Below are positions 4,349-54,916 of a stretch of 64,000 bases of DNA, piece by piece. Location: assembly GCA_965205915.1 (NCBI GenBank), contig OZ242191.1, positions 853,410-917,409 on the forward strand. The letters are read 5' to 3'. Source of the stretch: Dehalococcoidia bacterium. GTDB lineage: Bacteria > Chloroflexota > Dehalococcoidia > UBA6926. Each line of letters opens with the position of its first letter. Position 1 is the stretch's first letter. Position numbers and translations under genes: made by a program. The notes beneath the pieces were generated by a model. It made no database searches. It was not told the origin of the DNA and was given only the letters and a program-made list of their open reading frames with translations.

Positions 4349-6861
4349 TACCGGGTGACGAGGTTCAGGAGCCTGCCCGGGACATAGATGACGCGGGCCG
4401 GGTCTGTGCCGTTGAGGGCGGTCTGGATTTTTTCGCTACCCATCGCAGCCACCCGCGCATCGTCCTCGGCGATGTCCGCCGCGACGGTTAGCCTGTCGCG
4501 CAGTTTGCCGTCCACCTGCACGATGAGCGTGATTTCCTCGGATTTCGTCAGTGCGGAGTCGTAGTCAGGCCACGCCTGCTGATGGATGGAATACGGGTTG
4601 CCCGACGACTCCCAGAGTTCTTCTGTAAGATGCGGCGCGATGGGACATAGCAGAAGCAGCAGAGTGTCATACGCCTTGCGCCACTCCGGGCTTGTGGCCG
4701 CCGTTGGGCTATCCGATTCGATGCGTGACAGCGTGTTGGTGAAGGTCATCAACGCCGCAATCATCGTATTGAGTTGGAAGGATTCGATGTCCTCGGTCGC
4801 TTTCTGGATCGTGCGGTGCATCTCGCGAGTAAGCTCGGTGGCGATGTTGGGCGGCGCGGCGGCGCCCTCTGCACGGCATCGAACCTCGCACAGCTCCCAC
4901 ACGCGGTTGAACCAGCGCGGCACACCACGGATACCCTGCGTGCTCCACGCCCCGCCCTGATCCCACGGGCCGACGAACATCAGATAGGCGCGCACGGCGT
5001 CCGCGCCGAGTAAAACCGTCTGCTCGTCGGGATTCACGACGTTGCCGCGACTCTTGGACATCTTCTCGTGATCCTCACCGAGAATGACGCCCTGGTTGAA
5101 CAGCCGCTTGAACGGCTCATCAAACGAGAGTAGGCCCAGGTCGCGGAGCGCCTTTGTGAAGAATCGGGCATAGAGCAGGTGCATGACGGCGTGCTCCGCG
5201 CCGCCGGTGTAAAGATCGACGGGCGCCCACTTGGCTAGGTCCGCCGGGTCGAATGCCGCGTCAGTGCCGGCGTCCGGGCTTGTGTAGCGGAACTGGTACC
5301 ACGATGAGTCCACGAACGTGTCCATCGTGTCCGTCTCACGCTCCGCCTCGGCGTTGCCGCATTGGGGACACGTCGCGACGCGGAAACTGTCGTGATATTT
5401 CAGAGGCGACTCGCCCGTCGGAAGGAACTCGGCGTCGTCCGGTAATACGACCGGGAGTTGATCTTCCGGCACGGGCACAGTTCCACAGTGCGGGCAGTAG
5501 ATAATCGGTATCGGCGTGCCCCAATATCGTTGACGCGAGACAAGCCAGTCGCGCATCCGATAGGACACTGTCGGTCCGCCCCAACCGTTTTCTTCCAGAT
5601 GCCGCGCGACAGCTGCCTTGCCGTCCTCGTTCGGCAGTCCGGTGAATGGGCCCGAATTGACCATGGCGCCGGGCTCGATATACGCCTCACTCAACGGCTC
5701 TCCGTCGTAGTCCGCGGGGGCAATCACAACCTCAATCGGAATGTCGTACTTCGTTGCGAATTCAAAGTCTCGTTGGTCGTGAGCCGGCACGCCCATGACC
5801 GCGCCCGTGCCATACGTGGCCAGCGCATAGTCGGCGATCCACAGCGCGACCTTTTGTCCGTTGAGGCGATTAACGCAATACGTGCCGAGTGGCACGCCGG
5901 TCTTTTCCTTATCGACGGCAAGCCGCTCGATTTCAGTGAGGCGGCGGGCCTGCGCCACATACTCCTCCACGTCGGCGCGCTGCTCATCAGTCGTGAGAGC
6001 GGATACGAGGGGATGCTCAGGCGCGAGCACCATGAACGTGACGCCGTAAGCCGTATCGGGCCGCGTCGTAAACACACGCAGATCGTCAACATCCACGCCC
6101 GGAACATCCAGGCCAAACGAAATCTCCGCTCCCTCAGAGCGCCCGATCCAATTGGTCTGCATCAGGTTGATGCGCTCAGGCCAATCGATCTTCGAGTGGT
6201 CCAGCAACTCCTCCGCGTAGTCCGTGATGCGGAAGAACCACTGCTCAAGGTCGCGCTGATAGACGGCCGTTCCGCAGCGTTCGCACGTGCCGTCCGGCAT
6301 CACCTGCTCACGGGCGAGCGTCGTCTGATCCTTCTCACACCAGTTAACCGGGGCCATGGCGCGGTAGGCCAGACCCTTCTCATAGAGCTTGAGGAAGAAG
6401 TACTGGTTCCACTTGTAGTACTCAGGCAGGCAGGTGATGACCTCGCGCCGCCAGTCGTAGCTTGCGCCGATGGTCTTGAGTTGGGCGCGCATCCGCTCCA
6501 CGTTGTCCAACGTCCACGTCTGAGGGTGGATGCCGCGCTGAATGGCCGCATTCTCGGCGGGCAGGCCAAAGGCATCGAACCCCATCGGATGGAGGACGTT
6601 GTAGCCGCGCATCCGCATATAGCGGGCTTGGGCATCCGCCGGCGCCTCCGCGTACCAGTGGCCGACGTGGAGATCGCCCGAAGTGTAGGGGAACATGGTC
6701 AGGGCGTACCACGTGGGGCGCGAATCGTCCGATTTGGCCTCATGAAGGCCGTCCGCCTCCCAGCGTTCCTGCCACTTTCGATCAAGCGCGAGAGGATCGT
6801 ATTTGAGGTTATATGGATTGTCCGCGCGCCTCTCCACTGTCATCGATGTGCTGTCCCCCAC
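4348..6861 (-). CDS. leuS: leucyl-tRNA synthetase
   Basis: 837 aa. HVGHWYAEAP (HIGH-like), KMSKSRGN, CP1 editing-domain sequences. Confidence 0.95.
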   Translation of the reverse strand: MGDSTSMTVERRADNPYNLKYDPLALDRKWQERWEADGLHEAKSDDSRPTWYALTMFPYTSGDLHVGHWYAEAPADAQARYMRMRGYNVLHPMGFDAFGLPAENAAIQRGIHPQTWTLDNVERMRAQLKTIGASYDWRREVITCLPEYYKWNQYFFLKLYEKGLAYRAMAPVNWCEKDQTTLAREQVMPDGTCERCGTAVYQRDLEQWFFRITDYAEELLDHSKIDWPERINLMQTNWIGRSEGAEISFGLDVPGVDVDDLRVFTTRPDTAYGVTFMVLAPEHPLVSALTTDEQRADVEEYVAQARRLTEIERLAVDKEKTGVPLGTYCVNRLNGQKVALWIADYALATYGTGAVMGVPAHDQRDFEFATKYDIPIEVVIAPADYDGEPLSEAYIEPGAMVNSGPFTGLPNEDGKAAVARHLEENGWGGPTVSYRMRDWLVSRQRYWGTPIPIIYCPHCGTVPVPEDQLPVVLPDDAEFLPTGESPLKYHDSFRVATCPQCGNAEAERETDTMDTFVDSSWYQFRYTSPDAGTDAAFDPADLAKWAPVDLYTGGAEHAVMHLLYARFFTKALRDLGLLSFDEPFKRLFNQGVILGEDHEKMSKSRGNVVNPDEQTVLLGADAVRAYLMFVGPWDQGGAWSTQGIRGVPRWFNRVWELCEVRCRAEGAAAPPNIATELTREMHRTIQKATEDIESFQLNTMIAALMTFTNTLSRIESDSPTAATSPEWRKAYDTLLLLLCPIAPHLTEELWESSGNPYSIHQQAWPDYDSALTKSEEITLIVQVDGKLRDRLTVAADIAEDDARVAAMGSEKIQTALNGTDPARVIYVPGRLLNLVTR

Positions 6862-6957
6862 GTACTGGTTGAGATGCCGATAATGCCCGTTCAGTATACA
6901 GGGCGGCTCTCCGAGACAGGCTTTCGGCGCCTATACTGAAGTAGCGCAGGGGCAGCG

Positions 6958-7440
6958 ATGAATTACCTGGTTGAAAAGGTGTCTGAAGACGCCGAGACGA
7001 AGCAAAGCGTGCTCATTCTCCGACGCGTGGAGGGTGAGGACAGGCTGGCGCTGAACGTCCAGGAGCGGGAAGCCGTCGTGCTCGGCAGCCTCTTGGCCAA
7101 GGACGGGATGCCGGACACAGCTGTGCTGGAGCATCTGCGTGATACGGCCTCCCGACGCGCGGGCGCCGTCGTCGGCATCCGCCTCCTGATGATCGATACT
7201 CGCGACGGCCCTGCTCTGACGCCCGTGCTGGTCATGCGGCAAACCGATTCCTCCCTAGAACAGGCGATACCGGCTTCACTAGCGCACGCCGCCGCGTGGT
7301 CACTGGCACTGAACCTGCCATTTGAAATCGACGACGAACTTGTGGCGACACTACAGTCCATCGTCACCATCATCCCCGGAGAACCCCCAAGCGGCTTCCG
7401 CGAGCTACTAGAAGGTCTGGATGAGATAGATAGGGTTTAG
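6958..7440 (+). CDS. hypothetical protein; its C-terminal ~43 aa module is duplicated downstream
   Basis: 160 aa ORF divergent from leuS. The C-terminal LNLPFEIDDELVATLQSIVTIIPGEPPSGFRELLEGLDEIDRV recurs in the ORF at 7561-7770. Confidence 0.4.
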   Translation: MNYLVEKVSEDAETKQSVLILRRVEGEDRLALNVQEREAVVLGSLLAKDGMPDTAVLEHLRDTASRRAGAVVGIRLLMIDTRDGPALTPVLVMRQTDSSLEQAIPASLAHAAAWSLALNLPFEIDDELVATLQSIVTIIPGEPPSGFRELLEGLDEIDRV

Positions 7441-39693: not shown

Positions 39694-39705
39694 ATTGGGG
39701 GGGGG

Positions 39706-39778
39706 TGGAGCCGAGGGGATTCGAACCCCTGACCCCCTGCTTGCAAAGCAGGTGCTCTCCCGACTGAGCTACGGCCCC
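39706..39778 (-). tRNA. tRNA-Ala (anticodon UGC)
   Basis: Manual fold: acceptor GGGGCCG/CGGCTCC with the G3:U70 Ala identity pair, D-arm GCTCAGTCGGGAGAGC, anticodon loop TTTGCAA, T-arm AGGGGTTCGAATCCCCT, discriminator A. A partially encoded CC follows. Confidence 0.85.
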
Positions 39779-40127
39779 ACAATGTGAGGGCGGCTTAGAC
39801 CGCCTTTGATTGTTGCGCGACGCTTCGCGACTGTCCTATCTCATTGATGATAACCGCGTCGGTATTCGTCGTCTCGGCTACTTTGGCGCCGCTACGTTCC
39901 CGCCGATGCGCCGATGATGGCGAGCGTGATTATTGCTCCTGCCACCGTTGCGACAGCCGCCAGTATGCACAACTCAAGCAGGCCGAAGCCTCGCCGCCGT
40001 CTTTCCGTGCCCCCAAAATCCTCATCCATGACTGATCCTCACCGTATCCCTGCGCTGTCTAACCATTATGCCCGCTCCCGCAGGGCTTGAGTGGTGATCC
40101 GGGCATGAGCGGAGTGAGACCCAATGG

Positions 40128-45561: not shown

Positions 45562-47199
45562 CTACTCGGCGAACAGGGGCAATGATTCCCGAGCCGCGCC
45601 CAGAGAGTTGGCCGATACCCAGCTCAGGAACCCCTGGTAGCGACGAGCCGAGAGCCGGGTCGTCGCCTCGCCCCCGATCCCCGCAAGGAGATGCCTCGCG
45701 CGTCGAGCGGCGTCCGACTCACCGGGATTGGGCAGGACGGTGTAGACATCACGCGTCCGCCGTTCGAGCTCGATATCAGACTCCAGGTCAGCCATCGCAA
45801 GCAGGAACGGGAGGACGGCCGTTGCCAGCATGTCCAGGGCGCGGCCTCTGCCGAGCAGTGCGGACGGCTCGCCACGCCTGGCTAATCCGAAATCGCGATG
45901 CGATGCCCAATAGCCCGTCGGCGGGACTATTAGCGCCTCAATCAAGCGGGTTGCCGTCTCTCGCGGTGTCACACCCTCAATGGCGATTCGTCTGAGCGTC
46001 TCCGGCAGTTCCGGCCCCATAAGCCAGGGGCGCATCATCTCTACCGCGACGCCCATCCGCCTGACGGGGTGGTTGTCCGGTCTCACGCGGAACGTCTGCC
46101 ACGACCCTCGCGGCAACGATTCAAGTCCCGGATGCCGCGCCCATTCGGCCTCGGCGCGGCCGGTATAGTCATCCGCGAATAATCGTGCGCGGAAGCCATC
46201 CGACGCCGGCGCATCCTCAAGCAGCCGCCCCTGCGCCGCTCTGTCCCTCTGCGACGGCAGCAGGCCCGCAGTGCCAAAGAGCAGGCCGGTCAGCCGTGCG
46301 ACACGTGTCTCATCGTTCGAGCCGCCCTCTGCCAGGCCGCGCAGCGTCTCAATCGGCAACAGCCGCGCGACTTCCTGGAATGCCGTCATGTTTCGCGTAT
46401 AGCCCAGCCCCCTGAACAGCGCCTCGTACAGCGCCTGCTCCGGCCCAACGACGGCGATATCTCCCTCCATCGCTGCCGCCCGTTCCTCGAGACGCGCATC
46501 GCCCAACGAGTCGAGAAGCGCGGCCAAATCCCGACCACTCCTGATACCTCGCCCTTTTTGGGCCTCGGCGTTCTTGGGAGTGCCACGCCGATGGGGCGGC
46601 GGCAGGAACTCCAGCACCGGCGCGCCCGCAATCTCCGTGAGGCCGCATGCGTCCTCGACGACGTGGAGGATGACGCTTGCGAACGCCGGATTCGAATCGT
46701 GCCCGTGTGCGTACCAGTCCGGCGCCCGCAGGTGCATCTCCACATCACCGCTAACAATGCGGGGCGGTTGGCCGGGGGATGCGATAGCGATGACGGCGTC
46801 AAGAAAGTCCGGGCCGTCGCCGGAATTGCGCGCGCCCATGTGGATGACCCCAACGGGCATACCCGCGAGCGTCCTGAGCTTCCGATTGCGAGATCTCAGG
46901 CCGCCTGACGCCCACGCATCACAGAGATGTTTTTCGCTTTCCCATCTACCACGGTCATCAGAAAGCTGCGTGGCATAGTGCGCCGCGCCCTCGCGAATGC
47001 CCGCCTTTGCGGACGAACTGAGGCTGACATTTTCTCGTTGGACGTCTCGGCGACTTTGCCGGACAACGCCATTAGTGACTAAGTACCCGCGCATGTGCGG
47101 ATTGTAGCGCAACCGTTCCGACAACGTCACAACGGTTGGATCGGGGAAGCAGCCGGAGGTTGTTAGTCCCTGATCTGGCCGTCTCCGACGATGGTCCAC
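45562..47199 (-). CDS. hypothetical protein (possibly DUF2851-like)
   Basis: 545 aa with a GPDF...GDVEMH...WYAHGH block. No confident family assignment. Confidence 0.4.
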   Translation of the reverse strand: MDHRRRRPDQGLTTSGCFPDPTVVTLSERLRYNPHMRGYLVTNGVVRQSRRDVQRENVSLSSSAKAGIREGAAHYATQLSDDRGRWESEKHLCDAWASGGLRSRNRKLRTLAGMPVGVIHMGARNSGDGPDFLDAVIAIASPGQPPRIVSGDVEMHLRAPDWYAHGHDSNPAFASVILHVVEDACGLTEIAGAPVLEFLPPPHRRGTPKNAEAQKGRGIRSGRDLAALLDSLGDARLEERAAAMEGDIAVVGPEQALYEALFRGLGYTRNMTAFQEVARLLPIETLRGLAEGGSNDETRVARLTGLLFGTAGLLPSQRDRAAQGRLLEDAPASDGFRARLFADDYTGRAEAEWARHPGLESLPRGSWQTFRVRPDNHPVRRMGVAVEMMRPWLMGPELPETLRRIAIEGVTPRETATRLIEALIVPPTGYWASHRDFGLARRGEPSALLGRGRALDMLATAVLPFLLAMADLESDIELERRTRDVYTVLPNPGESDAARRARHLLAGIGGEATTRLSARRYQGFLSWVSANSLGAARESLPLFAE

Positions 47200-48476
47200 T
47201 TGTAGGATGTCAGCTCGCGCAGTCCCATCGGCCCGCGCGCGTGCAGCTTGTTGGTGCTGATTGCCACCTCAGCCCCCAGCCCAAGCTGCGCGCCGTCCGT
47301 GAACCGGCTTGACGCGTTGACGATGACGGCCGCCGCATCCACCTCATCAAGGAATCGCGTCGCGTTCTCATCGTTCCTGGTCAGGATCGCCTCCGTATGG
47401 CCGGAGCCGAACTCGGCGATATGCTCCAGAGCCTCGTCGAGGGAATCGACAACCTTGACGGCTGCCGTCAGCGACAGGAACTCCCGTCCCCAATCGTCCT
47501 CCACGGCGGCGATGACGCGCGTCGGCGGCTCAGGCCCCATCAGGGCAAGCGCGCGTCTGTCCGCGTGGATCTCGACACGGTCCTTGCTCCATTCCTCCAC
47601 AACTCTGGGCAGCAGCTTTGGCGCGGCCTGTGAGTGGACGAGCAACGTGTCCAGGGCGTTGCACACCGTGGGCCGTTGCACCTTGGCGTTGTACGCGATG
47701 GCGACTGCCTGCTCGATGTCCGCGCTCGCGTCCACATACGTATGGCACACGCCGATGCCGCCCGTCACGACGGGTATTCGCGCGTTGTCCCGCACAAAGC
47801 GGATGAGCGTATCGCTGCCGCGGGGAATCAGCAGGTCAATGCCTCCCTCATATATGAGCATCTGTCCTACGATGGCTCGATCCGTCGACTCGATGATCTG
47901 CGCCGCGTCCTTTGGCAGCCCGGCGGTCTCCAGCGCCTCCCGCACGATCCCGGCCAGCGTCGTCGTTGAGTTGATGGCCTCCTTGCCGCCGCGCAGGATG
48001 ACGGCGTTGCCGGACTTTATACAGAGGGCGGCGATATCGATGGTCACATTGGGGCGGCTCTCATAGACGGCGGCGATGACACCGAGCGGCACACGCCTGC
48101 GGCAGACGCGGAGGCCGTTCGGCAGCTTGGAGGCATCGAACTCCTCGCCGATGGGGTCAGGCAGCGCGACGGTGGCGCGAACATCGACGGCCATGCCGCG
48201 CACGCGCTCCTCGTTCAACAGGAGCCGATCAAGCAGGACATTGGACATGCCGTCCGCCTGCGCCGCCGCATAGTCTCGCTGATTGGCGGCGACTATCTCA
48301 GCGGACCGCTCCTCAAGCAGCGCCGCGATGCCCTCAAGCGCCCGGTTCTTCTCCTCAGTAGTCGCGCGCGAAAGGGGGCGGCTCGCCTTGCGGGCCGCCG
48401 TGGCCTTGCTGACAAGCTCCTCGGAGAACTCGCCAACCGGGGTTGTTGTTGTCTCAGTTACCGTCATCGCGGTCAC
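47163..48476 (-). CDS. proA: glutamate-5-semialdehyde dehydrogenase (gamma-glutamyl phosphate reductase)
   Basis: 437 aa aldehyde-dehydrogenase fold with ProA-type termini. Downstream of proB. Confidence 0.9.
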   Translation of the reverse strand: MTAMTVTETTTTPVGEFSEELVSKATAARKASRPLSRATTEEKNRALEGIAALLEERSAEIVAANQRDYAAAQADGMSNVLLDRLLLNEERVRGMAVDVRATVALPDPIGEEFDASKLPNGLRVCRRRVPLGVIAAVYESRPNVTIDIAALCIKSGNAVILRGGKEAINSTTTLAGIVREALETAGLPKDAAQIIESTDRAIVGQMLIYEGGIDLLIPRGSDTLIRFVRDNARIPVVTGGIGVCHTYVDASADIEQAVAIAYNAKVQRPTVCNALDTLLVHSQAAPKLLPRVVEEWSKDRVEIHADRRALALMGPEPPTRVIAAVEDDWGREFLSLTAAVKVVDSLDEALEHIAEFGSGHTEAILTRNDENATRFLDEVDAAAVIVNASSRFTDGAQLGLGAEVAISTNKLHARGPMGLRELTSYKWTIVGDGQIRD

Positions 48477-48517
48477 TCATCCTTTGGGTGGCGCATCTGC
48501 TTACACATGCCGTCCTG

Positions 48518-48543
48518 CTATCGATCTATCGATCTATCGATCT
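48518..48543. repeat. ctatcgat x3 direct octamer repeat upstream of proA
   Basis: Three perfect tandem copies, each containing the atcgat palindrome, in the 144-nt gap between the membrane-protein gene and proA. Confidence 0.6.
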
Positions 48544-48620
48544 CTTATCAGATACTCAATTGTAGTGGCGCGGAATATGCGGTTCAAACGGCTGGGGAAT
48601 TACAGCCACAACCAGAACAG

Positions 48621-49103
48621 TCACTCACTGAGTGCCTCCTCTCTACGGTACCCTGATGAAGTTGTGACCGCTCCTATCAGTACGCCCACGGCCATTCCGA
48701 CGAAACTCATGACGTCCTGGACTGTCACCCACCAACCCAAATCGTCATAAGCGGAGGTAAAGAACAGGCCGAATATCAGTAATCCGCCCCCGACAAGCAA
48801 AAGAATTGTGCCCGATAGTACCGCCAAAAGCCGCTGTCCGATAGGTGCTACAGCACCAGCCAACCAGACTGCTGCGAATGAACTGGCGGCAAACTGAAAA
48901 AGTATGTAGATTGCGTAGAACAGTTCCGCTGTTGGAAGCTCTACAAGCCATAACAAGTTGACGTCACCCCGAGGAAACACCAGCAAGTCAAGCGACCAGA
49001 TAAGACGCAGAACCAGCGAAACGAGAATGTATCCTGTCAAAAAGGTTGGTAAGATTAGCGCCCATCTAGTCCACGTAGGTAGCTTCTGAACGAATTCATC
49101 CAA
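48621..49103 (-). CDS. small integral membrane protein (4 predicted TM helices), lower GC than its neighbours
   Basis: 160 aa hydrophobic ORF between the displaced proB 3' remnant and proA. About 56% GC by eye, versus about 65% for proA. Confidence 0.4.
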   Translation of the reverse strand: MDEFVQKLPTWTRWALILPTFLTGYILVSLVLRLIWSLDLLVFPRGDVNLLWLVELPTAELFYAIYILFQFAASSFAAVWLAGAVAPIGQRLLAVLSGTILLLVGGGLLIFGLFFTSAYDDLGWWVTVQDVMSFVGMAVGVLIGAVTTSSGYRREEALSE

Positions 49104-49119
49104 GACTTGGCTCCCCTCC

Positions 49120-49311
49120 TCACAGCAGCGCCAGGTGGTCTCGGTGGACCATCTCCTCGCCGTGGAAGATGGTGCCCGATGGTGAGGCGTCCTCGAAGAA
49201 GCTCCTGAATCCCTTGCGGATTGCCGATTTAAGAGCTTTTCCCTGTCCTCCGCCCTCTACAAAGATCGTCGCGCTCACCAGCGGTTGCCCCCAATGTGAC
49301 CACGCGTCCAC
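49120..49311 (-). pseudogene. chimeric ORF: about 30 foreign N-terminal codons fused to a diverged duplicate of the proB 3' end
   Basis: The C-terminal ...FFEDASPSGTIFHGEEMVHRDHLALL matches the ProB C-terminus ...FFDDASTSGVTYHGEEMIHRDHLTLL. DNA 49120-49205 is ~80% identical to 50613-50700. GTG start overlaps the ATPase gene end. Confidence 0.55.
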
Positions 49312-50519
49312 AGCTCGCCTACCCGATACTTCTCAAGCCAGATGCCAAAGTTCTCCTTATCCACCCGTTTGAACTCGGTGCCGTTCCTGCCTCGCTCGGT
49401 GATGATGAGCGATTCCGGTTGATCGTTTAGATGATCCACGATGTACTCGGAGTGCGTCGTAACGATTAGCTGCGTCCGTTCGGAGGCCTCCTTGATCATG
49501 CGCGTCACGTTCTGGAGCAGGTCCGGATGCAGGCCAACCTCCGGCTCCTCCAACAAGATCAACGGCGGGGGATTGGGGTTGCACAGGATCGCGATCAGAC
49601 ACAGATAGCGAAGCGTGCCGCCGGACATTCGATTAGGCGTGATTGGGGAGTCCAAGCCGTCTTCAAAGATGATTGTCTGGAGCGTGCTGGCAGCCACCTG
49701 CGTGTCAACGTCTTTGATTCCTTCGTAGAGGTCCTTCACACGATCCTTCACGGCGTCGCGGATTTTCGCGTTGTTCAACAGCGAGTTCAGCAGCGTGTGG
49801 AGATTGCTGCCCTTCTGATTGAGCGGGCCGGGCAGATTTGCGGCCAATTCCGCTTGGCGCAGCGCAGAACCCGGCCCGGTGTCAAACACGTCGTAAGCCT
49901 GGATTCCATCCAGGCGGAGCCGAAGAAACGTAATTTCTGGATACGTGTTCATGTCCGCCAGTTGCGGCAACACGGATCGGATCATAGAGAATTTGTTATC
50001 ATCGGGGGCCGTGCTTTTTTCGAGGGTGACGTCTTCACGACGCATTGCAGGGAGAAGGCTCCGTATCGCGGATACGATAGGATCGCCGTTGTTCCGTCTA
50101 TACAACGGTTGCCATTCAGTACCCTGGTCAAGGTAATCGTCTGCTCCCCACACCGCCTCGTCCACAATCACGGGGTTCTGCCCCCAAGGTGGCTCAGCCA
50201 GTGACAATCCATATCCCACAGTGCCATAACCCAAAAATTTCCAGCTCGGGTCGTTCATAGCGACGCTAATGCTTGCAATCCGGGCCTCACCGGAGCCCTT
50301 CCATATCCAGCCACTGATGCCGCCGTTGTTCAGAACGAATTGATCGAGATTGTTGGGCACAGCACGCAAGAGCGATAATGCCTGCACCAAGTTGGACTTG
50401 CCAGACCCGTTAGGGCCAATGAGCACGTTCAACGGGCCCAGTTCAAGCGTCTGAGCTTCCGGGCCAAACGACAGTATGTTTTCAAGCCGAATCGAACGTA
50501 TCAGACCGTTGCCTGCCAA
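49275..50519 (-). CDS. orphan AAA_21/ABC-type ATPase (defence-island-like ATP-binding protein)
   Basis: Walker A GPNGSGKSN, signature-like MSGGTLRY, Walker B LILLEEPEVGLHP, H-loop TTHS. No Toprim or other nuclease domain. Lower GC than proA/proB. Inserted between proB and proA. Confidence 0.7.
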   Translation of the reverse strand: MAGNGLIRSIRLENILSFGPEAQTLELGPLNVLIGPNGSGKSNLVQALSLLRAVPNNLDQFVLNNGGISGWIWKGSGEARIASISVAMNDPSWKFLGYGTVGYGLSLAEPPWGQNPVIVDEAVWGADDYLDQGTEWQPLYRRNNGDPIVSAIRSLLPAMRREDVTLEKSTAPDDNKFSMIRSVLPQLADMNTYPEITFLRLRLDGIQAYDVFDTGPGSALRQAELAANLPGPLNQKGSNLHTLLNSLLNNAKIRDAVKDRVKDLYEGIKDVDTQVAASTLQTIIFEDGLDSPITPNRMSGGTLRYLCLIAILCNPNPPPLILLEEPEVGLHPDLLQNVTRMIKEASERTQLIVTTHSEYIVDHLNDQPESLIITERGRNGTEFKRVDKENFGIWLEKYRVGELWTRGHIGGNRW

Positions 50520-50612
50520 CCTTGTTGCCTCCTGCTCTTGCGTTTCGCTTGCTCAGTAGATTCGGCAGATTCCCCGGCCACTACGTGGCTGACATAATTC
50601 TAATGCCTCGCC

Positions 50613-51764
50613 TCACAGCAGCGTCAGGTGGTCGCGGTGGATCATTTCTTCTCCGTGGTAGGTGACTCCGGATGTGGAGGCGTCATCGAAGAATTGGCGG
50701 ATTTCCGCGTTGTGTAGGCCCGCAAGCCGACGCATCAGGCCCGCAGGGTACGAAACGGCGCCGCGCGCCACGCCCGTCTCATCCGGCCCGACGATTTCAA
50801 CGATGTCGCCCGTTGTGAACTCTCCACGCACCTCGCGCACGCCGACGGCCAGCAGGCTGGACGAGCCGCCACGTAATGCCCGCGCCGCGCCCTCGTCCAC
50901 AACGACCTGCCCGCGCACAAAGAGCGGGCCCTGCGAGCGACGGCGGGCAGAGGCTCGCCTTCGCCCCCACGCCTCGAATCGCGTGCCAATCTCCTCCCCC
51001 CGCGCCGACCGCAGCAGCACATCCGGCGCGTGGCCGTTGGCGATGACTACCGTCGTGCCCCATGACGTTGCCTCTGCCGCCGCGCGCACCTTGGAGGCCA
51101 TGCCGCCGCGCCCCTGCTCGCCGGGCATCTCCGCGGCCATTGCCTGTATCGCGTCCGTCACACGATCAACCTTATGGATAAGCGCCGCGTCTGAATTCGT
51201 TCGGGGATCGCTGTCGAAGAGTCCGTCCTGATCCGTCAGCAGGATGAGCATGTCCGCCGCCATCAGGTTTGTGAGAGCGGCGGAGAGGTTGTCGTTGTCA
51301 CCGAGCGTCTCACTCAGCTCTTCAGAGGCGACGACGTCATTCTCGTTGACGATGGGAATAACCCCCAGGCTCAAGAGCTCTCGCAGCGTGCGGCGGATGT
51401 TGGCGGCGGAACGCCCTACGGTCAGATCGGAGCGCGTGATGAGCGCCTGAGCGACGACCAGGCCATGTTCCGCGAACGCCCCCTCATAGGAGCGCATCAG
51501 GTGATGCTGGCCGATCGCGGCGAGTGCTTGCAGGGTCGTGACGCCGCGCCCCTTCCCCCTGAGTCCGACGATACTCCGCCCCAGCGCCACCGCCGCCGAG
51601 GTCACGATGATGACCTGCGATTGAGCGGCGACTATTTCCGCCACCTGCTTGGCGATAGACCCTATCAGGGCTTCATCAAGCTGATCGCCGCCATCCGTCA
51701 GCACGCCGGTGCCGAGCTTGGCCACGATGAGGCTGTTCCGCGGCAAGCTAGCGGCTTTGGCCAT
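50613..51764 (-). CDS. proB: glutamate 5-kinase with C-terminal PUA domain
   Basis: Amino-acid kinase fold with a PUA tail. Start probably MAKAASLPRNSLIVAKLGTG (51764). The longest ORF extends to 51794. Confidence 0.9.
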   Translation of the reverse strand: MAKAASLPRNSLIVAKLGTGVLTDGGDQLDEALIGSIAKQVAEIVAAQSQVIIVTSAAVALGRSIVGLRGKGRGVTTLQALAAIGQHHLMRSYEGAFAEHGLVVAQALITRSDLTVGRSAANIRRTLRELLSLGVIPIVNENDVVASEELSETLGDNDNLSAALTNLMAADMLILLTDQDGLFDSDPRTNSDAALIHKVDRVTDAIQAMAAEMPGEQGRGGMASKVRAAAEATSWGTTVVIANGHAPDVLLRSARGEEIGTRFEAWGRRRASARRRSQGPLFVRGQVVVDEGAARALRGGSSSLLAVGVREVRGEFTTGDIVEIVGPDETGVARGAVSYPAGLMRRLAGLHNAEIRQFFDDASTSGVTYHGEEMIHRDHLTLL

Positions 51765-51914
51765 CGATGACCCTGAGGCGTCGTTCACAATCACTCTCGT
51801 GCCGTCTCACGGCGGCTTTCCGGAAATACAGTCCAACCGATAATCCGGTGTCAAACGACAACGGTGCTTAAAAGTATATCGCCGCCAACATGGTGGGCGA
51901 CTGCTACAATCGCC

Positions 51915-53234: not shown

Positions 53235-53423
53235 ATGAATGCGAATGAGTTGCGGCGTTGGCTGAGCAAGCAGGGAGCGACGTTTGAGAGGCATAAGGGT
53301 GGCAGTGGACACGTAACCGTCAGGCGGGGTGACCGGACAAGCCAACTTCCTATGCACGGCGGACGGAAAGAGCTGGGACGCAGACTCGTCGAGAAGATCA
53401 AGAAAGACTTGGGGTTAGACTGA
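53235..53423 (+). CDS. hicA: HicA-family mRNA-interferase toxin
   Basis: 62 aa. MNANELRRWLSKQGATFERHKGGSGHVTVRRGDRTSQLPMHG matches the HicA fold. Confidence 0.8.
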   Translation: MNANELRRWLSKQGATFERHKGGSGHVTVRRGDRTSQLPMHGGRKELGRRLVEKIKKDLGLD

Positions 53424-53887
53424 TGCTCGCCTATCCGATAACGCTTGAAGAGGACGATGGGGCTTTGCTCGCAACATCGCCGGACTTCCCGGAACTGACG
53501 TCCTTTGGTGATGATGCGGACGATGCGCTGGCCCACGCCGTGGATGCGCTGGAGGAGGCTATTGCCGCCCGAATGAGTTATCACCAGGAGATTCCGTTGC
53601 CTTCGCGCGGTGAAAACCTCGTTCCGCTTCCGACCCTCACATCGGCAAAGGTCATGCTTTATCGCGCGATGCGGGAGAACGGCATCGGCAAGGCGGAGTT
53701 GAGTCGCCGACTGGGGTGCCACATGCCACAGGTGGACCGCCTCCTGGATCTCAACCACAGTTCGAGAATGAATATGATTGACGCCGCCATGCGCGCCGTC
53801 GGCCTCCGGTTGAGCATTAGCGCCGTCCCCGTGGAGACCCCCCTACTGGCCATCGCCGAAGAGCAAGGCAAGTATCGGGCACGATGA
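53423..53887 (+). CDS. hicB: HicB-family antitoxin with C-terminal HTH
   Basis: 154 aa. Starts at the hicA stop (ATG/TGA overlap). N-terminal HicB-like fold, C-terminal HTH-like region (RLGCHMPQVDRLLD). Confidence 0.7.
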   Translation: MLAYPITLEEDDGALLATSPDFPELTSFGDDADDALAHAVDALEEAIAARMSYHQEIPLPSRGENLVPLPTLTSAKVMLYRAMRENGIGKAELSRRLGCHMPQVDRLLDLNHSSRMNMIDAAMRAVGLRLSISAVPVETPLLAIAEEQGKYRAR

Positions 53888-53922
53888 GGAACGGCTACCA
53901 TTAGTGACGCGGGAGATTTGGC

Positions 53923-54201
53923 ATGGATGTAAATGACAACCTGCTTGAGCGGATCGCGTCGGATCCGCGGATACTGTTCGGAAAGCCGGTAATTCGTGGG
54001 ACGCGCATCGCAGTCGAGCATGTGCTCGAAATGATGGCAGCCGGTATGACGCAGGACGAAATCGTCGAAGGCTATGACCGCCTGAGCCCGGACGACATCA
54101 GGGCATGCCTGACCTATGCCTACCGCTATGTTGCAGGTGAACTTGGCTATGGCAATGCGAATGGGAATGACGCGGTACGCCCTAGGGATAAAGCAAGATG
54201 A
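53923..54201 (+). CDS. DUF433-family protein (putative antitoxin)
   Basis: GKPVIRGTRIAVEHVLEMMAAGMTQDEIVEGYDRLSPDDIRACLTYA matches the DUF433 consensus. Confidence 0.7.
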   Translation: MDVNDNLLERIASDPRILFGKPVIRGTRIAVEHVLEMMAAGMTQDEIVEGYDRLSPDDIRACLTYAYRYVAGELGYGNANGNDAVRPRDKAR

Positions 54202-54446
54202 GCGTCGATGACACCTTGCTGGAGCGCTTCGTTGGCGAGGACGGACTCATCCCAATCAATCCTCACATTCCTGATTGCGGCATGAGAGTTGAAAGCGTTC
54301 TCGCCATGTTGGCCAGCGGAATGACTTATAGGGAAATCCTCGCCCAGAACCCGTCTCTTCAGGCAGACGACATCAGGGCCTGTATCACCTACGCGTACCG
54401 CTGCGTGTCCGGCGAGCTAATCCTCGGTCGACTTGTCATCCGATAA
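54198..54446 (+). CDS. second DUF433-family paralog (diverged)
   Basis: RVESVLAMLASGMTYREILAQNPSLQADDIRACITYA aligns with the upstream gene. 4-nt overlap between the two paralogs. Confidence 0.6.
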   Translation: MSVDDTLLERFVGEDGLIPINPHIPDCGMRVESVLAMLASGMTYREILAQNPSLQADDIRACITYAYRCVSGELILGRLVIR

Positions 54447-54450
54447 CTCT

Positions 54451-54809
54451 CGTGCGTTTTCTGGTCGACGAGTCCGCAGATTCCCACATCCTCCGTTCCA
54501 CACTTGAGTCATTGGAACACGACGTAATCGCTGTGAGGGACCTTGAAAGGGGTATAGCGATGACGAACAAGTCCTGGCGATGGCCTTTGCCGACAACCGC
54601 GCCCTCATAACCAAGGACAAGGACTTCGGCAGACTGGTTTTCGAGTCCGGTTTGCCGCATCGCGGGGTCATTCGCATTTCTGATAGGGATGCCTCTAGTG
54701 TCGTTGCTGCCGTGCTGGACGTTATCAAGAATTACGAAGATGCCATCGAGGATGGCTCCTTTGTCACGGTCGACTACAACGGAGTGCGGATTACGCCAGG
54801 GCCTCGATA
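54451..54809 (+). pseudogene. DUF5615-family (PIN-like) toxin gene disrupted by a 1-nt frameshift at a G-run
   Basis: The first frame reads VRFLVDESADSHILRSTLESLEHDVIAVRDLERG, then hits a stop. The other frame reads KGYSDDEQVLAMAFADNRALITKDKDFGRLV...GVIRISD. Together these match the DUF5615 consensus. Adding one G to the gaaagggg run near 54545-54552 restores a ~118-aa ORF. Confidence 0.55.
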
Positions 54810-54916
54810 AACACCCCTGCTGCGCTTGACGTTTCATCCTGTACGGGGTAGCGTCCATGTGTACGAAAGTGACGCCCCACCGGCGTTGCGTGATGGAATA
54901 ACCTGGAGGACATATC

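Follow-up and report, generated by a model that had tools for sequence, protein, structure and literature searches.

The proB–proA locus of the window (the whole 64,000-nucleotide stretch of a Dehalococcoidia bacterium contig analysed here) raises the question of how an intact proB gene came to be followed by a second, diverged copy of its own 3' end, with an ATPase gene of defence type lying between the two. The original prediction took the arrangement for a decayed integrative element or minimal cassette. We propose that it is, most probably, a recombinant allele of a cargo hotspot, in which a HEC-01 allele was joined by illegitimate, homology-facilitated recombination to an allele carrying a membrane-protein gene, here called memb. 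All of the genes concerned (proB, the ATPase gene, a chimeric ORF, the 160-aa memb ORF and proA) lie on the minus strand, and the features are as follows:

50613-51794, minus strand: proB (glutamate 5-kinase with a PUA domain), intact; Pfam AA_kinase 4e-38 and PUA 1e-15
50606-50693, minus strand: repeat copy 1, the working proB 3' end (FFDDASTSGVTYHGEEMIHRDHLTLL, then stop) plus 7 nt past the stop codon; from the repeat search
50520-50612, minus strand: HEC-01 cassette leader, 93 nt, carrying a TAGAAT-like element and, ahead of the TTG start, an AGGAGG ribosome-binding site
49275-50519, minus strand: HEC-01A, a 414-aa ABC-type (AAA_21) ATPase, intact ORF; PADLOC PDLC04177 and Pfam AAA_21
49206-49304, minus strand: putative remnant of an 'allele X', comprising the last 9 ATPase codons and HEC-01B codons 1-24; from the mismatch pattern
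49195-49278, minus strand: HEC-01B (DUF4276/TOPRIM-like) stump of 28 codons (VSATIFVEGGGQGKALKSAIRKGFRSFF); PADLOC PDLC04201
49195-49200, minus strand: recombination joint TTCTTC (Phe-Phe); from the window and L004 aligned with state-3 proB and HEC-01B alleles
49120-49278, minus strand: chimeric ORF of 52 codons, made of the HEC-01B stump and a proB tail; from ORF calling
49113-49200, minus strand: repeat copy 2, a state-3-type proB 3' end (FFEDASPSGTIFHGEEMVHRDHLALL, then stop) that is displaced and fused in frame to the stump; from the repeat search
48621-49103, minus strand: memb, a 160-aa ORFan with four hydrophobic helices; from hydropathy
48477-48620, minus strand: proB–proA spacer, native, of state-3 type; from comparison with relatives
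47163-48467 (or 48476), minus strand: proA (gamma-glutamyl phosphate reductase); Pfam Aldedh

The duplication of the proB 3' end, predicted as about 85 nt at about 80% identity, is real: the two copies (49113-49200 and 50606-50693) are 88 nt long, 81% identical and 1493 nt apart, and no other repeat pair in the 5-kb region is longer than 30 nt (at 73%). General similarity among PUA domains does not account for it, since blastn and tblastn searches with the tail over the 64 kb return just these two copies. Copy 1 is of the same type as the tails in L002 and L004; copy 2 is 88.9% identical to the proB tail of L003. The flanking genes are well conserved in Dehalococcoidia relatives (79-98% aa identity for proB and 82-98% for proA, whose ATG at 48467 agrees with the 434-aa calls in relatives), and the predicted lower GC of the two cargo genes is evident from the computed values, 0.56 (GC3 0.68) for the ATPase and 0.51 (GC3 0.53) for the membrane ORF, compared with 0.65 (GC3 0.78-0.82) for proB and proA.

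Comparison with relatives reveals four allelic states at this position. Sixteen occupied related loci were examined, and the empty state was counted over 18 related Dehalococcoidia species representatives. In 17 of the 18, proB is followed directly by proA, as expected if the ATPase gene is inserted cargo. In the second state an intact HEC-01A and HEC-01B pair occupies the gap and the proB tail is present once (seven loci: L001, L002, L003, L018, L035, L036 and L037), and in the third memb is present without HEC-01, starting 12 nt after proB (six loci, L029-L034); both arrangements anticipated for the relatives, proB–proA and proB–memb–proA, are thus found. The fourth state is the chimera of the window, which is also present in L004, an independent long contig (1x) whose strain has diverged by 3%; proA differs by ~5% between the two chimera-bearing strains. 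The hotspot, which belongs to a clade of uncultured Dehalococcoidia, is a gap of no more than 15 nt separating the stop codon of proB from the promoter of proA. The phylogeny of the cassettes disagrees with that of the flanks, and the picture is one of a proB–proA micro-hotspot where HEC-01 alleles have been exchanged across species. The leader of the window cassette has homologues in L002, L003 and L004, its TAGAAT element recurs in L001 and L018, and a search of the leaders against Rfam for structured RNAs gave no matches at E<=1.

Site-specific integration of an ATPase-carrying element into the proB 3' end, with copy 1 as the element's replacement end and copy 2 as the displaced original in the manner of an att-site duplication, fits these observations superficially, in that an intact gene is followed by a diverged downstream copy of its own 3' end, the cargo has lower GC and the site is empty in most relatives. 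The intact loci speak against it. Seven intact cassettes occupy the same site with one tail and no flanking or att-type repeat, and a search for target-site duplications around intact cassettes gave only a weak recurrence of GGCAT in one cassette type, which we judge unconvincing. The proB tails track host lineage and species rather than the cassette, and L001, L018 and the window group all have the tail type of their host irrespective of the kind of cassette they carry, so the prediction that the element brought its own replacement end is not upheld. Nor is copy 2 a boundary of the cassette: its fusion point is codon 28, within HEC-01B, and from 49200 (at the TTCTTC) the window aligns without a break with L029-L034 through the tail, memb, spacer and proA to fumC. 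The spacer of the window, which contains a conserved proA promoter-like site (TTGAAC-17-TACAAT, 48587-48559) and an 8-nt tandem repeat at 48518-48543, is likewise of the state-3 and not the state-2 type. The absence of an integrase noted originally extends from the proB–proA gap of the window to all 16 related occupied loci, where no transposase or nearby tRNA was seen either; the only tRNA in the window, considered for tRNA-linked integration, is at 39703-39779, ~9 kb away. Viral contigs, searched for signs of phage carriage, contain no close relative of the ATPase or the cassette. With no recombinase gene, no bounding attL/attR repeats and no target-gene end belonging to an element, we regard site-specific integration as very improbable, and a duplicated gene end alone is no signature of it.

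What lies immediately upstream of copy 2 identifies the missing partner. The predicted defence-type ABC ATPase is HEC-01A: it matches PADLOC PDLC04177 at E=5.2e-123 (residues 6-414 on profile positions 4-393 of 393) and Pfam AAA_21 at 7e-35, and its translation contains Walker A (GPNGSGKS), signature (MSGGT), Walker B (LILLEEPE) and H-loop (TTHS) motifs. Its TGA (49277-49275) is overlapped by the GTG (49278-49276) of the chimeric ORF, whose first codons match the N-terminus of HEC-01B (PDLC04201, E=6.6e-8, profile positions 2-36 of 202). The stump had been described as 30 unrelated codons fused to the displaced tail; the fusion stands, and the length is corrected to 26 non-proB codons followed by FF, after which the proB-like tail runs to the end of the ORF at 49120. 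Its interpretation as the remnant of a translationally coupled DUF4276 partner is supported by the profile match and by the intact 196-aa partners in relatives, which score E=1e-71 to 1e-75 on the same profile and also match Pfam DUF4276. The 52-aa chimeric ORF itself has no Pfam match, including to DUF4276, and tblastn with intact HEC-01B finds no such sequence in the 64-kb window besides the stump. The remnant keeps only the first strand and the glutamate of the VEG motif; the metal-binding segment LLVDAEG and all downstream residues of the intact alleles are missing. Because the nuclease partner is destroyed, the pair is probably non-functional, and we suggest that annotation pipelines count the lone HEC-01A here as an incomplete system.

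The joint itself is a 6-nt microhomology, TTCTTC, common to HEC-01B codons 27-28 and proB codons -26/-25. The window reads ...AGGAGC|TTCTTCGAGGACGCC, state-3 proB reads ...CGCCAA|TTCTTCGAGGACGCC, and the HEC-01B alleles continue at this point as TTCTTCCGG or TTCTTCCAG. Co-occurring state-2 and state-3 strains, whose reads a metagenome assembler might have merged, are both represented in related metagenome samples, but six nucleotides is far below any assembler overlap, the stump allele is unlike either parental type, and the same structure was recovered from another sample in L004; misassembly can be dismissed for practical purposes on the strength of that second contig.

A simple route to this structure would begin with two alleles of the hotspot. 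The first would carry the full HEC-01 candidate defence pair, the ABC ATPase HEC-01A translationally coupled to the TOPRIM-like DUF4276 nuclease HEC-01B, and the second would have no cargo but the ORFan membrane-protein gene, placed straight after proB. At TTCTTC, an illegitimate crossover would have linked codon 28 of HEC-01B with proB codon -26 of the second allele, and the exchange would have been completed by a homologous crossover in the shared flank, giving proB – leader – HEC-01A – HEC-01B(1-28)::proB tail – memb – spacer – proA, with the second tail, memb and the state-3-type spacer arriving together. The duplicated proB end would then be explained by recombination with a competing allele of the hotspot, which cut off the nuclease gene. 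Both window flanks are closer to state-2 L037 and L035 (91-100%) than to state-3 L029 (79-95%), so a state-2 recipient is favoured. It would have taken up ~0.73 kb, comprising the tail, memb and the spacer, from a relative in state 3, at the cost of HEC-01B codons 29-196; this direction is the most likely one, as read from identities that differ modestly over a strongly mosaic region. The sequences directly show the four states, the joint, the borders of the mosaic and the missing part of HEC-01B, from which the pathway of recombination, its direction and the loss of function are inferred. The same product is predicted exactly by a merodiploid route, in which a circularised or long fragment enters by a single homologous crossover to form a tandem proB-A-B-...-proB'-memb-proA, followed by a TTCTTC-TTCTTC deletion between B and proB', and replication-slippage and illegitimate deletions leave microhomology at their joints just as typically. 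That route takes two events rather than one, however, and its tandem intermediate is seen at none of the 16 occupied loci, and we think it rather unlikely.

Direct joining of a HEC-01 allele to a memb allele has one further complication. Over 50500-49500 the ATPase gene shows 98-100% nt identity with state-2 strains, and dense mismatches to L002, L035, L036 and L037 then start sharply at 49304. The segment from there to the joint appears to derive from an unsampled HEC-01 allele ('allele X'); the GC of 49206-49278 is 0.53. A 40-aa hybrid query returned no candidates for an intact parent, and an exact 25-mer and a degenerate back-translated pattern had no occurrences in JGI metagenome contigs. 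Within the >=90% ATPase cluster, 14 of the 15 listed members have another C-terminus and one has the chimera type. Since no intact source was found for the stump and the last 9 ATPase codons, the history must include one or more additional recombination steps, or else a parent outside the sample.

Could the chimera nevertheless be a functional new module, with the ATPase served by the 52-aa stump-tail peptide, the four-helix membrane protein or both as substitute effector? The ATPase ORF is intact, and the two chimeric copies (window and L004) differ by 7 synonymous and 3 non-synonymous changes (dN/dS 0.13). The chimeric ORF differs between them by one synonymous and one non-synonymous change, with frame and translational coupling kept in both. 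The memb gene is a true ORFan, clearly coding and under purifying selection (dN/dS 0.23 against the stand-alone L029 allele). It has four hydrophobic segments by hydropathy, a single-sequence AF2 model is all-helical with low confidence (pLDDT 63.6, pTM 0.30), only self-matches are found among 5.8e9 clusters (word-indexed search for remote homologues) and 1.84e9 representatives (HMMER), and there is no match to Pfam or PADLOC profiles. Yet the purifying selection on memb was measured against an allele that stands alone, 10 substitutions between the chimeric ATPases are so few that their intactness says little, and just one of the listed ATPase cluster members shares the chimera-type C-terminus. 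Moreover, each gene occurs without the other, memb without any ATPase at six loci and the ATPase with intact HEC-01B and without memb at seven, which does not bear out the proposed pairing of an ATPase with a small membrane protein. A selectively maintained module therefore seems quite improbable despite the presence of the chimera in two strains, and the same low likelihood attaches to its more specific form, a recent nuclease-to-membrane effector swap, spreading between strains, in which a HEC-01-type ATPase acts via the co-transcribed memb and/or the 52-aa peptide of TOPRIM strand and PUA tail. The intact ATPase ORF is compatible with continued function or with too little time for decay. 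The ATPase is a recently orphaned gene and its adjacency to memb an accidental by-product; the case is one of genome shuffling and not a new kind of system.

Read as a recombinant of two cargo alleles, the locus provides a base-pair record of the natural breakage of a small defence-type cassette, the damage being a 6-nt microhomology crossover between two alternative hotspot cargos without mobile-element machinery. The empty, the two single-cargo and the recombinant states have all been recovered from metagenomes, and the exact donor HEC-01 allele has not.

Among known systems the closest is HEC-01 (Hma-embedded candidate 01 of PADLOC-DB v2; Payne et al., bioRxiv 10.1101/2024.01.29.577857), for which 'defence' is a candidate label, as it gave no protection in published E. 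coli assays. The window ATPase spans the HEC-01A profile end to end, gene order and the 4-nt GTGA overlap coupling it to a DUF4276/TOPRIM-like partner are the same, and the full pair is present at the same locus in L001, L002, L003, L018 and L035-L037; it differs in that the B gene of the window is 28 codons fused to a proB tail, which falls short of the two-gene definition. The TOPRIM catalytic set consists of a Glu after strand 1 and an acidic DxD-type motif after strand 3 (PMC12065111; bioRxiv 10.1101/2024.01.29.577857), and the stump does not contain the full set. In pairing an AAA_15/21-type ABC ATPase with a TOPRIM-fold nuclease, the intact relatives resemble PARIS (AriA with the DUF4435 TOPRIM nuclease AriB) and OLD/Gabija, and DUF4276 is among the partner domains of this ATPase group (PMC11464382; PMC12065111). 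However, AriA profiles match the window ATPase at 3e-34 and 7e-19 as against 5e-123 for HEC-01A, the relatives' partner is DUF4276 and not DUF4435 or Toprim_Old, so that the AriA-type ATPase with a DUF4435 partner that defines PARIS is not what is found, and, unlike in OLD/GajA, ATPase and nuclease are separate proteins.

Homology-facilitated illegitimate recombination (HFIR) with joints of 3-10 bp is documented in transformable bacteria (PMC6382021; de Vries & Wackernagel 2002 and Prudhomme et al. 2002, as summarised there). The window resembles it in having a 6-nt joint exactly at the switch point of parental types, with homologous and mosaic flanking DNA on the other side and foreign DNA beside a partly duplicated or deleted resident segment; it differs in being deduced from natural alleles of uncultured Dehalococcoidia and not observed in an experiment. 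Hotspots for defence genes and other cargo flanked by core genes, as in Pseudomonas and E. coli, are variable spots between conserved genes, and their cargo is exchanged by flanking homologous recombination. The proB–proA gap is similar in that unrelated alternative cargos occupy one position between core genes with no mobility genes, but its cargo is tiny, at one or two genes in 0.5-1.9 kb, and it falls within the proBA pair itself, in the exact interval from one gene's stop codon to the other's promoter.

The genes of the proB-proA region of the window are arranged as follows.

Genes at the proB-proA locus of the window
50613-51794, minus strand: proB
49275-50519, minus strand: 414-aa ORF, ATPase
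ending at 49120, minus strand: short ORF, partner-gene stump followed by a proB-like tail
48621-49103, minus strand: 160-aa ORF, membrane protein
47163-48467/48476, minus strand: proA

A repeat search reveals one outstanding direct repeat, between 49113-49200 and 50606-50693 (two 88-nt copies with 81% identity, separated by 1493 nt); the runner-up pair in 5 kb is merely 30 nt long with 73% identity. Both blastn and tblastn find two copies of the proB tail and no others in the whole 64-kb window, and the repeat is therefore not a general PUA-domain similarity recurring at many loci, the finding that would have counted against the original prediction. Composition differs among the genes, with GC of ~0.65 and GC3 of 0.78-0.82 in proB and proA, 0.56 and 0.68 in the ATPase gene, and 0.51 and 0.53 in the membrane ORF. 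The repeat search, blast and GC values thus bear out the predicted repeat, lower-GC ATPase, short ORF and membrane ORF, and the short ORF does have a non-proB part, although this comprises 26 codons and a shared Phe-Phe instead of the 30 proposed.

The ATPase matches Pfam AAA_21 (7e-35) and, over the full profile length, HEC-01A (PADLOC-DB PDLC04177, E=5.2e-123); the PADLOC-DB profiles for AriA, AbiLi, GajA and Old score far lower. [quoted passage not shown] The ATPase TGA (49277-49275) is overlapped by the GTG of the short ORF (49278-49276), the same coupling as in the intact HEC-01 pairs of relatives, and short-ORF residues 12-46 match the partner, HEC-01B (PDLC04201, profile positions 2-36 of 202, E=6.6e-8). 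Intact HEC-01B proteins in relatives have PADLOC E-values of 1e-71 to 1e-75 together with a Pfam DUF4276 match; the stump was correctly predicted to derive from a DUF4276 partner. DUF4276, in which a Glu and a DxD motif are conserved, has been placed in the Toprim superfamily (PMC12065111); the stump retains the VEG glutamate and lacks the LLVDAEG segment and a further ~170 residues present in intact alleles. There is no other HEC-01B-like sequence in the 64-kb window.

Searching genome contigs with proB identified relatives in 18 species, of which 17 are titled Dehalococcoidia and the other Chloroflexota, with 79-85% aa identity in proB, and mapping of the window proteins shows the order recF<-proB->proA->DUF2851->fumC in all 18. 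Four arrangements of the gap are seen among the related loci (L handles) and the window.

States of the proB-proA gap
State 1: proB, about 110 nt, proA, with no cargo; 17/18 species representatives, as predicted
State 2: proB, HEC-01A, complete 196-197-aa HEC-01B, proA; L018, L001, L002, L003, L035, L036, L037
State 3: proB, 12 nt, membrane ORF, proA, without HEC-01; L029-L034
State 4: the chimera; window and L004

L004, a long '1x' contig, comes from a different sample and has flanks ~3% diverged from the window, and this independent occurrence rules out misassembly of the chimera. At all occupied loci the cargo sits downstream of the proB stop and ahead of a conserved promoter-like element of proA (TTGAAC-17-TACAAT, window 48587-48559), the sole sigma-70-type match in the region. 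This element, followed by a GC-rich inverted repeat, precedes proA in all relatives (48559-48587, leader to 48477); there is no Rfam family match, and the leader of proA may form a structure not yet characterised. The leader also contains an 8-nt tandem repeat (CTATCGAT x3.2, 48518-48543), one unit longer in the window than in L004 and L029-L032.

The proposal that an integrative element had brought its own proB end is not supported. No occupied locus contains a recombinase gene, the sole tRNA in the window is ~9 kb away, state-2 loci carry just one proB tail each, no repeat flanks their intact cassettes, and no close ATPase relative was found on viral contigs. The tails instead track host lineage: those of L001 and L018 are QAEDNAN-type like their empty-site neighbours, and in the window group the tails are EDAS-type in states 2 and 3 alike.

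Alignment of the window and L004 with state-3 loci locates the joint. Homology to state 3 begins exactly at TTCTTCGAGGACGCC (49200 downward) and is unbroken through the tail, short spacer, membrane gene, state-3-type spacer, proA, DUF2851 and fumC; just upstream, the window has ...AAGGGATTCAGGAGC, which is HEC-01B. State-3 proB reads ...GAAATCCGCCAA here, and the equivalent codons of intact HEC-01B alleles are ...TTCTTCCGG or ...TTCTTCCAG (QAFQTFFRKA, QAFRTFFQKA). Together these place the switch within a 6-nt microhomology, TTCTTC (Phe-Phe), and the fusion is in frame because TTCTTC is in frame in both genes. The second tail is thus the terminal part of a proB of state-3 type, carried along with the membrane gene; as a boundary of the ATPase cassette it is rejected, being contiguous with the state-3 membrane gene and spacer.

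The remainder of the locus is mosaic. Between ~50500 and 49305 the window shares 98-100% identity with state-2 L002, L035, L036 and L037, and mismatches become dense abruptly at 49304, so the final nine codons of the ATPase gene, together with the stump, come from a different HEC-01 allele ('allele X'). Of the 15 proteins listed in the ≥90% ATPase cluster, 14 have the C-terminus ...TSGQLGGVRW, and the window-like ...TRGHIGGNRW is found among them only in L004. No intact allele X was recovered with a hybrid query or with exact and degenerate patterns in JGI metagenome contigs. Between 49200 and ~48480 the window resembles state 3 (88-94% to L029), and from proA onward state-2 strains are again the nearer match (91-99%), ahead of L029.

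Such a pattern is more in keeping with a state-2 recipient that would have imported ~0.73 kb (tail, membrane gene and spacer) from a state-3 relative and lost HEC-01B codons 29-196 and its own spacer; transfer in the opposite direction, into a state-3 recipient, is possible. At least one further exchange by homology, close to the 3' end of the ATPase gene, is needed. Homology-facilitated illegitimate recombination, in which a 3-10-bp microhomology joint is paired with a homologous anchor on the opposite side, is known from S. pneumoniae, Acinetobacter and P. stutzeri (PMC6382021), and the TTCTTC joint with its homologous flank fits this process. As a variant, a merodiploid intermediate followed by microhomology deletion would yield the identical product.

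The ATPase core (49500-50500) is 98-100% identical in six strains (window, L002, L004, L035, L036, L037) whose adjoining proB and recF differ by 3-21%, with dS of 0.03-0.05 in the ATPase versus ~0.2 in proA, suggesting recent spread of one HEC-01A allele through diverged backgrounds by recombination. The L003 cassette (L003:7907-9215 versus window 50612-49275) is also mosaic: its leader and first ~220 nt of ATPase match the window at 83-89% identity, nucleotide similarity is undetectable in the middle, which may be a specificity region, and the 3' end is ~69% identical. Cassette and flank phylogenies disagree: L037 and L003 share 95% aa identity in proB and 55% in HEC-01A, L001 and L018 92% and 47%, and L037 and L001 84% and 82%, and cassette types appear to have been exchanged across species at the fixed site. 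In L037, proA (5949-7254) is split into two predicted ORFs of 103 and 343 aa, suggesting a frameshift or a sequencing error in this contig. A second small variable islet (~53900-54818) has two DUF433 ORFs and a DUF5615-type ORF (53923-54201, 54198-54446 and 54452/54580-54810) adjoining HicA/HicB-like ORFs (53235-53887); it occurs in the window, L004, L036 and L037, is missing from L003, L029-L034 and L035, and looks like a toxin-antitoxin-type insertion/deletion polymorphism beside recF.

The membrane ORF is genuinely coding: it differs from the state-3 allele by 17 synonymous and 12 conservative non-synonymous changes (dN/dS 0.23), and its product has four hydrophobic helices. Its GC3 is well below the genome value of about 0.8, yet it is under purifying selection. 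No homologues were found in 5.8e9 clusters or 1.84e9 HMMER-scanned representatives, and the protein (L029:6001-6483 in state 3) is a strict ORFan of this Dehalococcoidia group. Its adjacency to the ATPase is secondary because each is found without the other, which also argues against the suggested new ATPase-membrane protein pairing.

The window locus represents a known candidate family in decayed form, generated via a known type of recombination, and the proB-proA gap is a small, previously undescribed cargo hotspot in uncultured Dehalococcoidia; the value of the case lies in a clean natural reconstruction of the recombination event and in the allele exchange at this hotspot. With the nuclease lost, the window pair most probably has no activity. 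Its ATPase ORF remains intact, but the two chimeric copies are only 10 substitutions apart (7 synonymous, 3 non-synonymous) and its intactness is therefore uninformative. In relatives with the intact pair, we infer that an ATPase sensor/regulator would control a metal-dependent nuclease, by analogy with the ABC-ATPase/TOPRIM pairs PARIS, OLD and Gabija, which HEC-01 would resemble in its mode of action.
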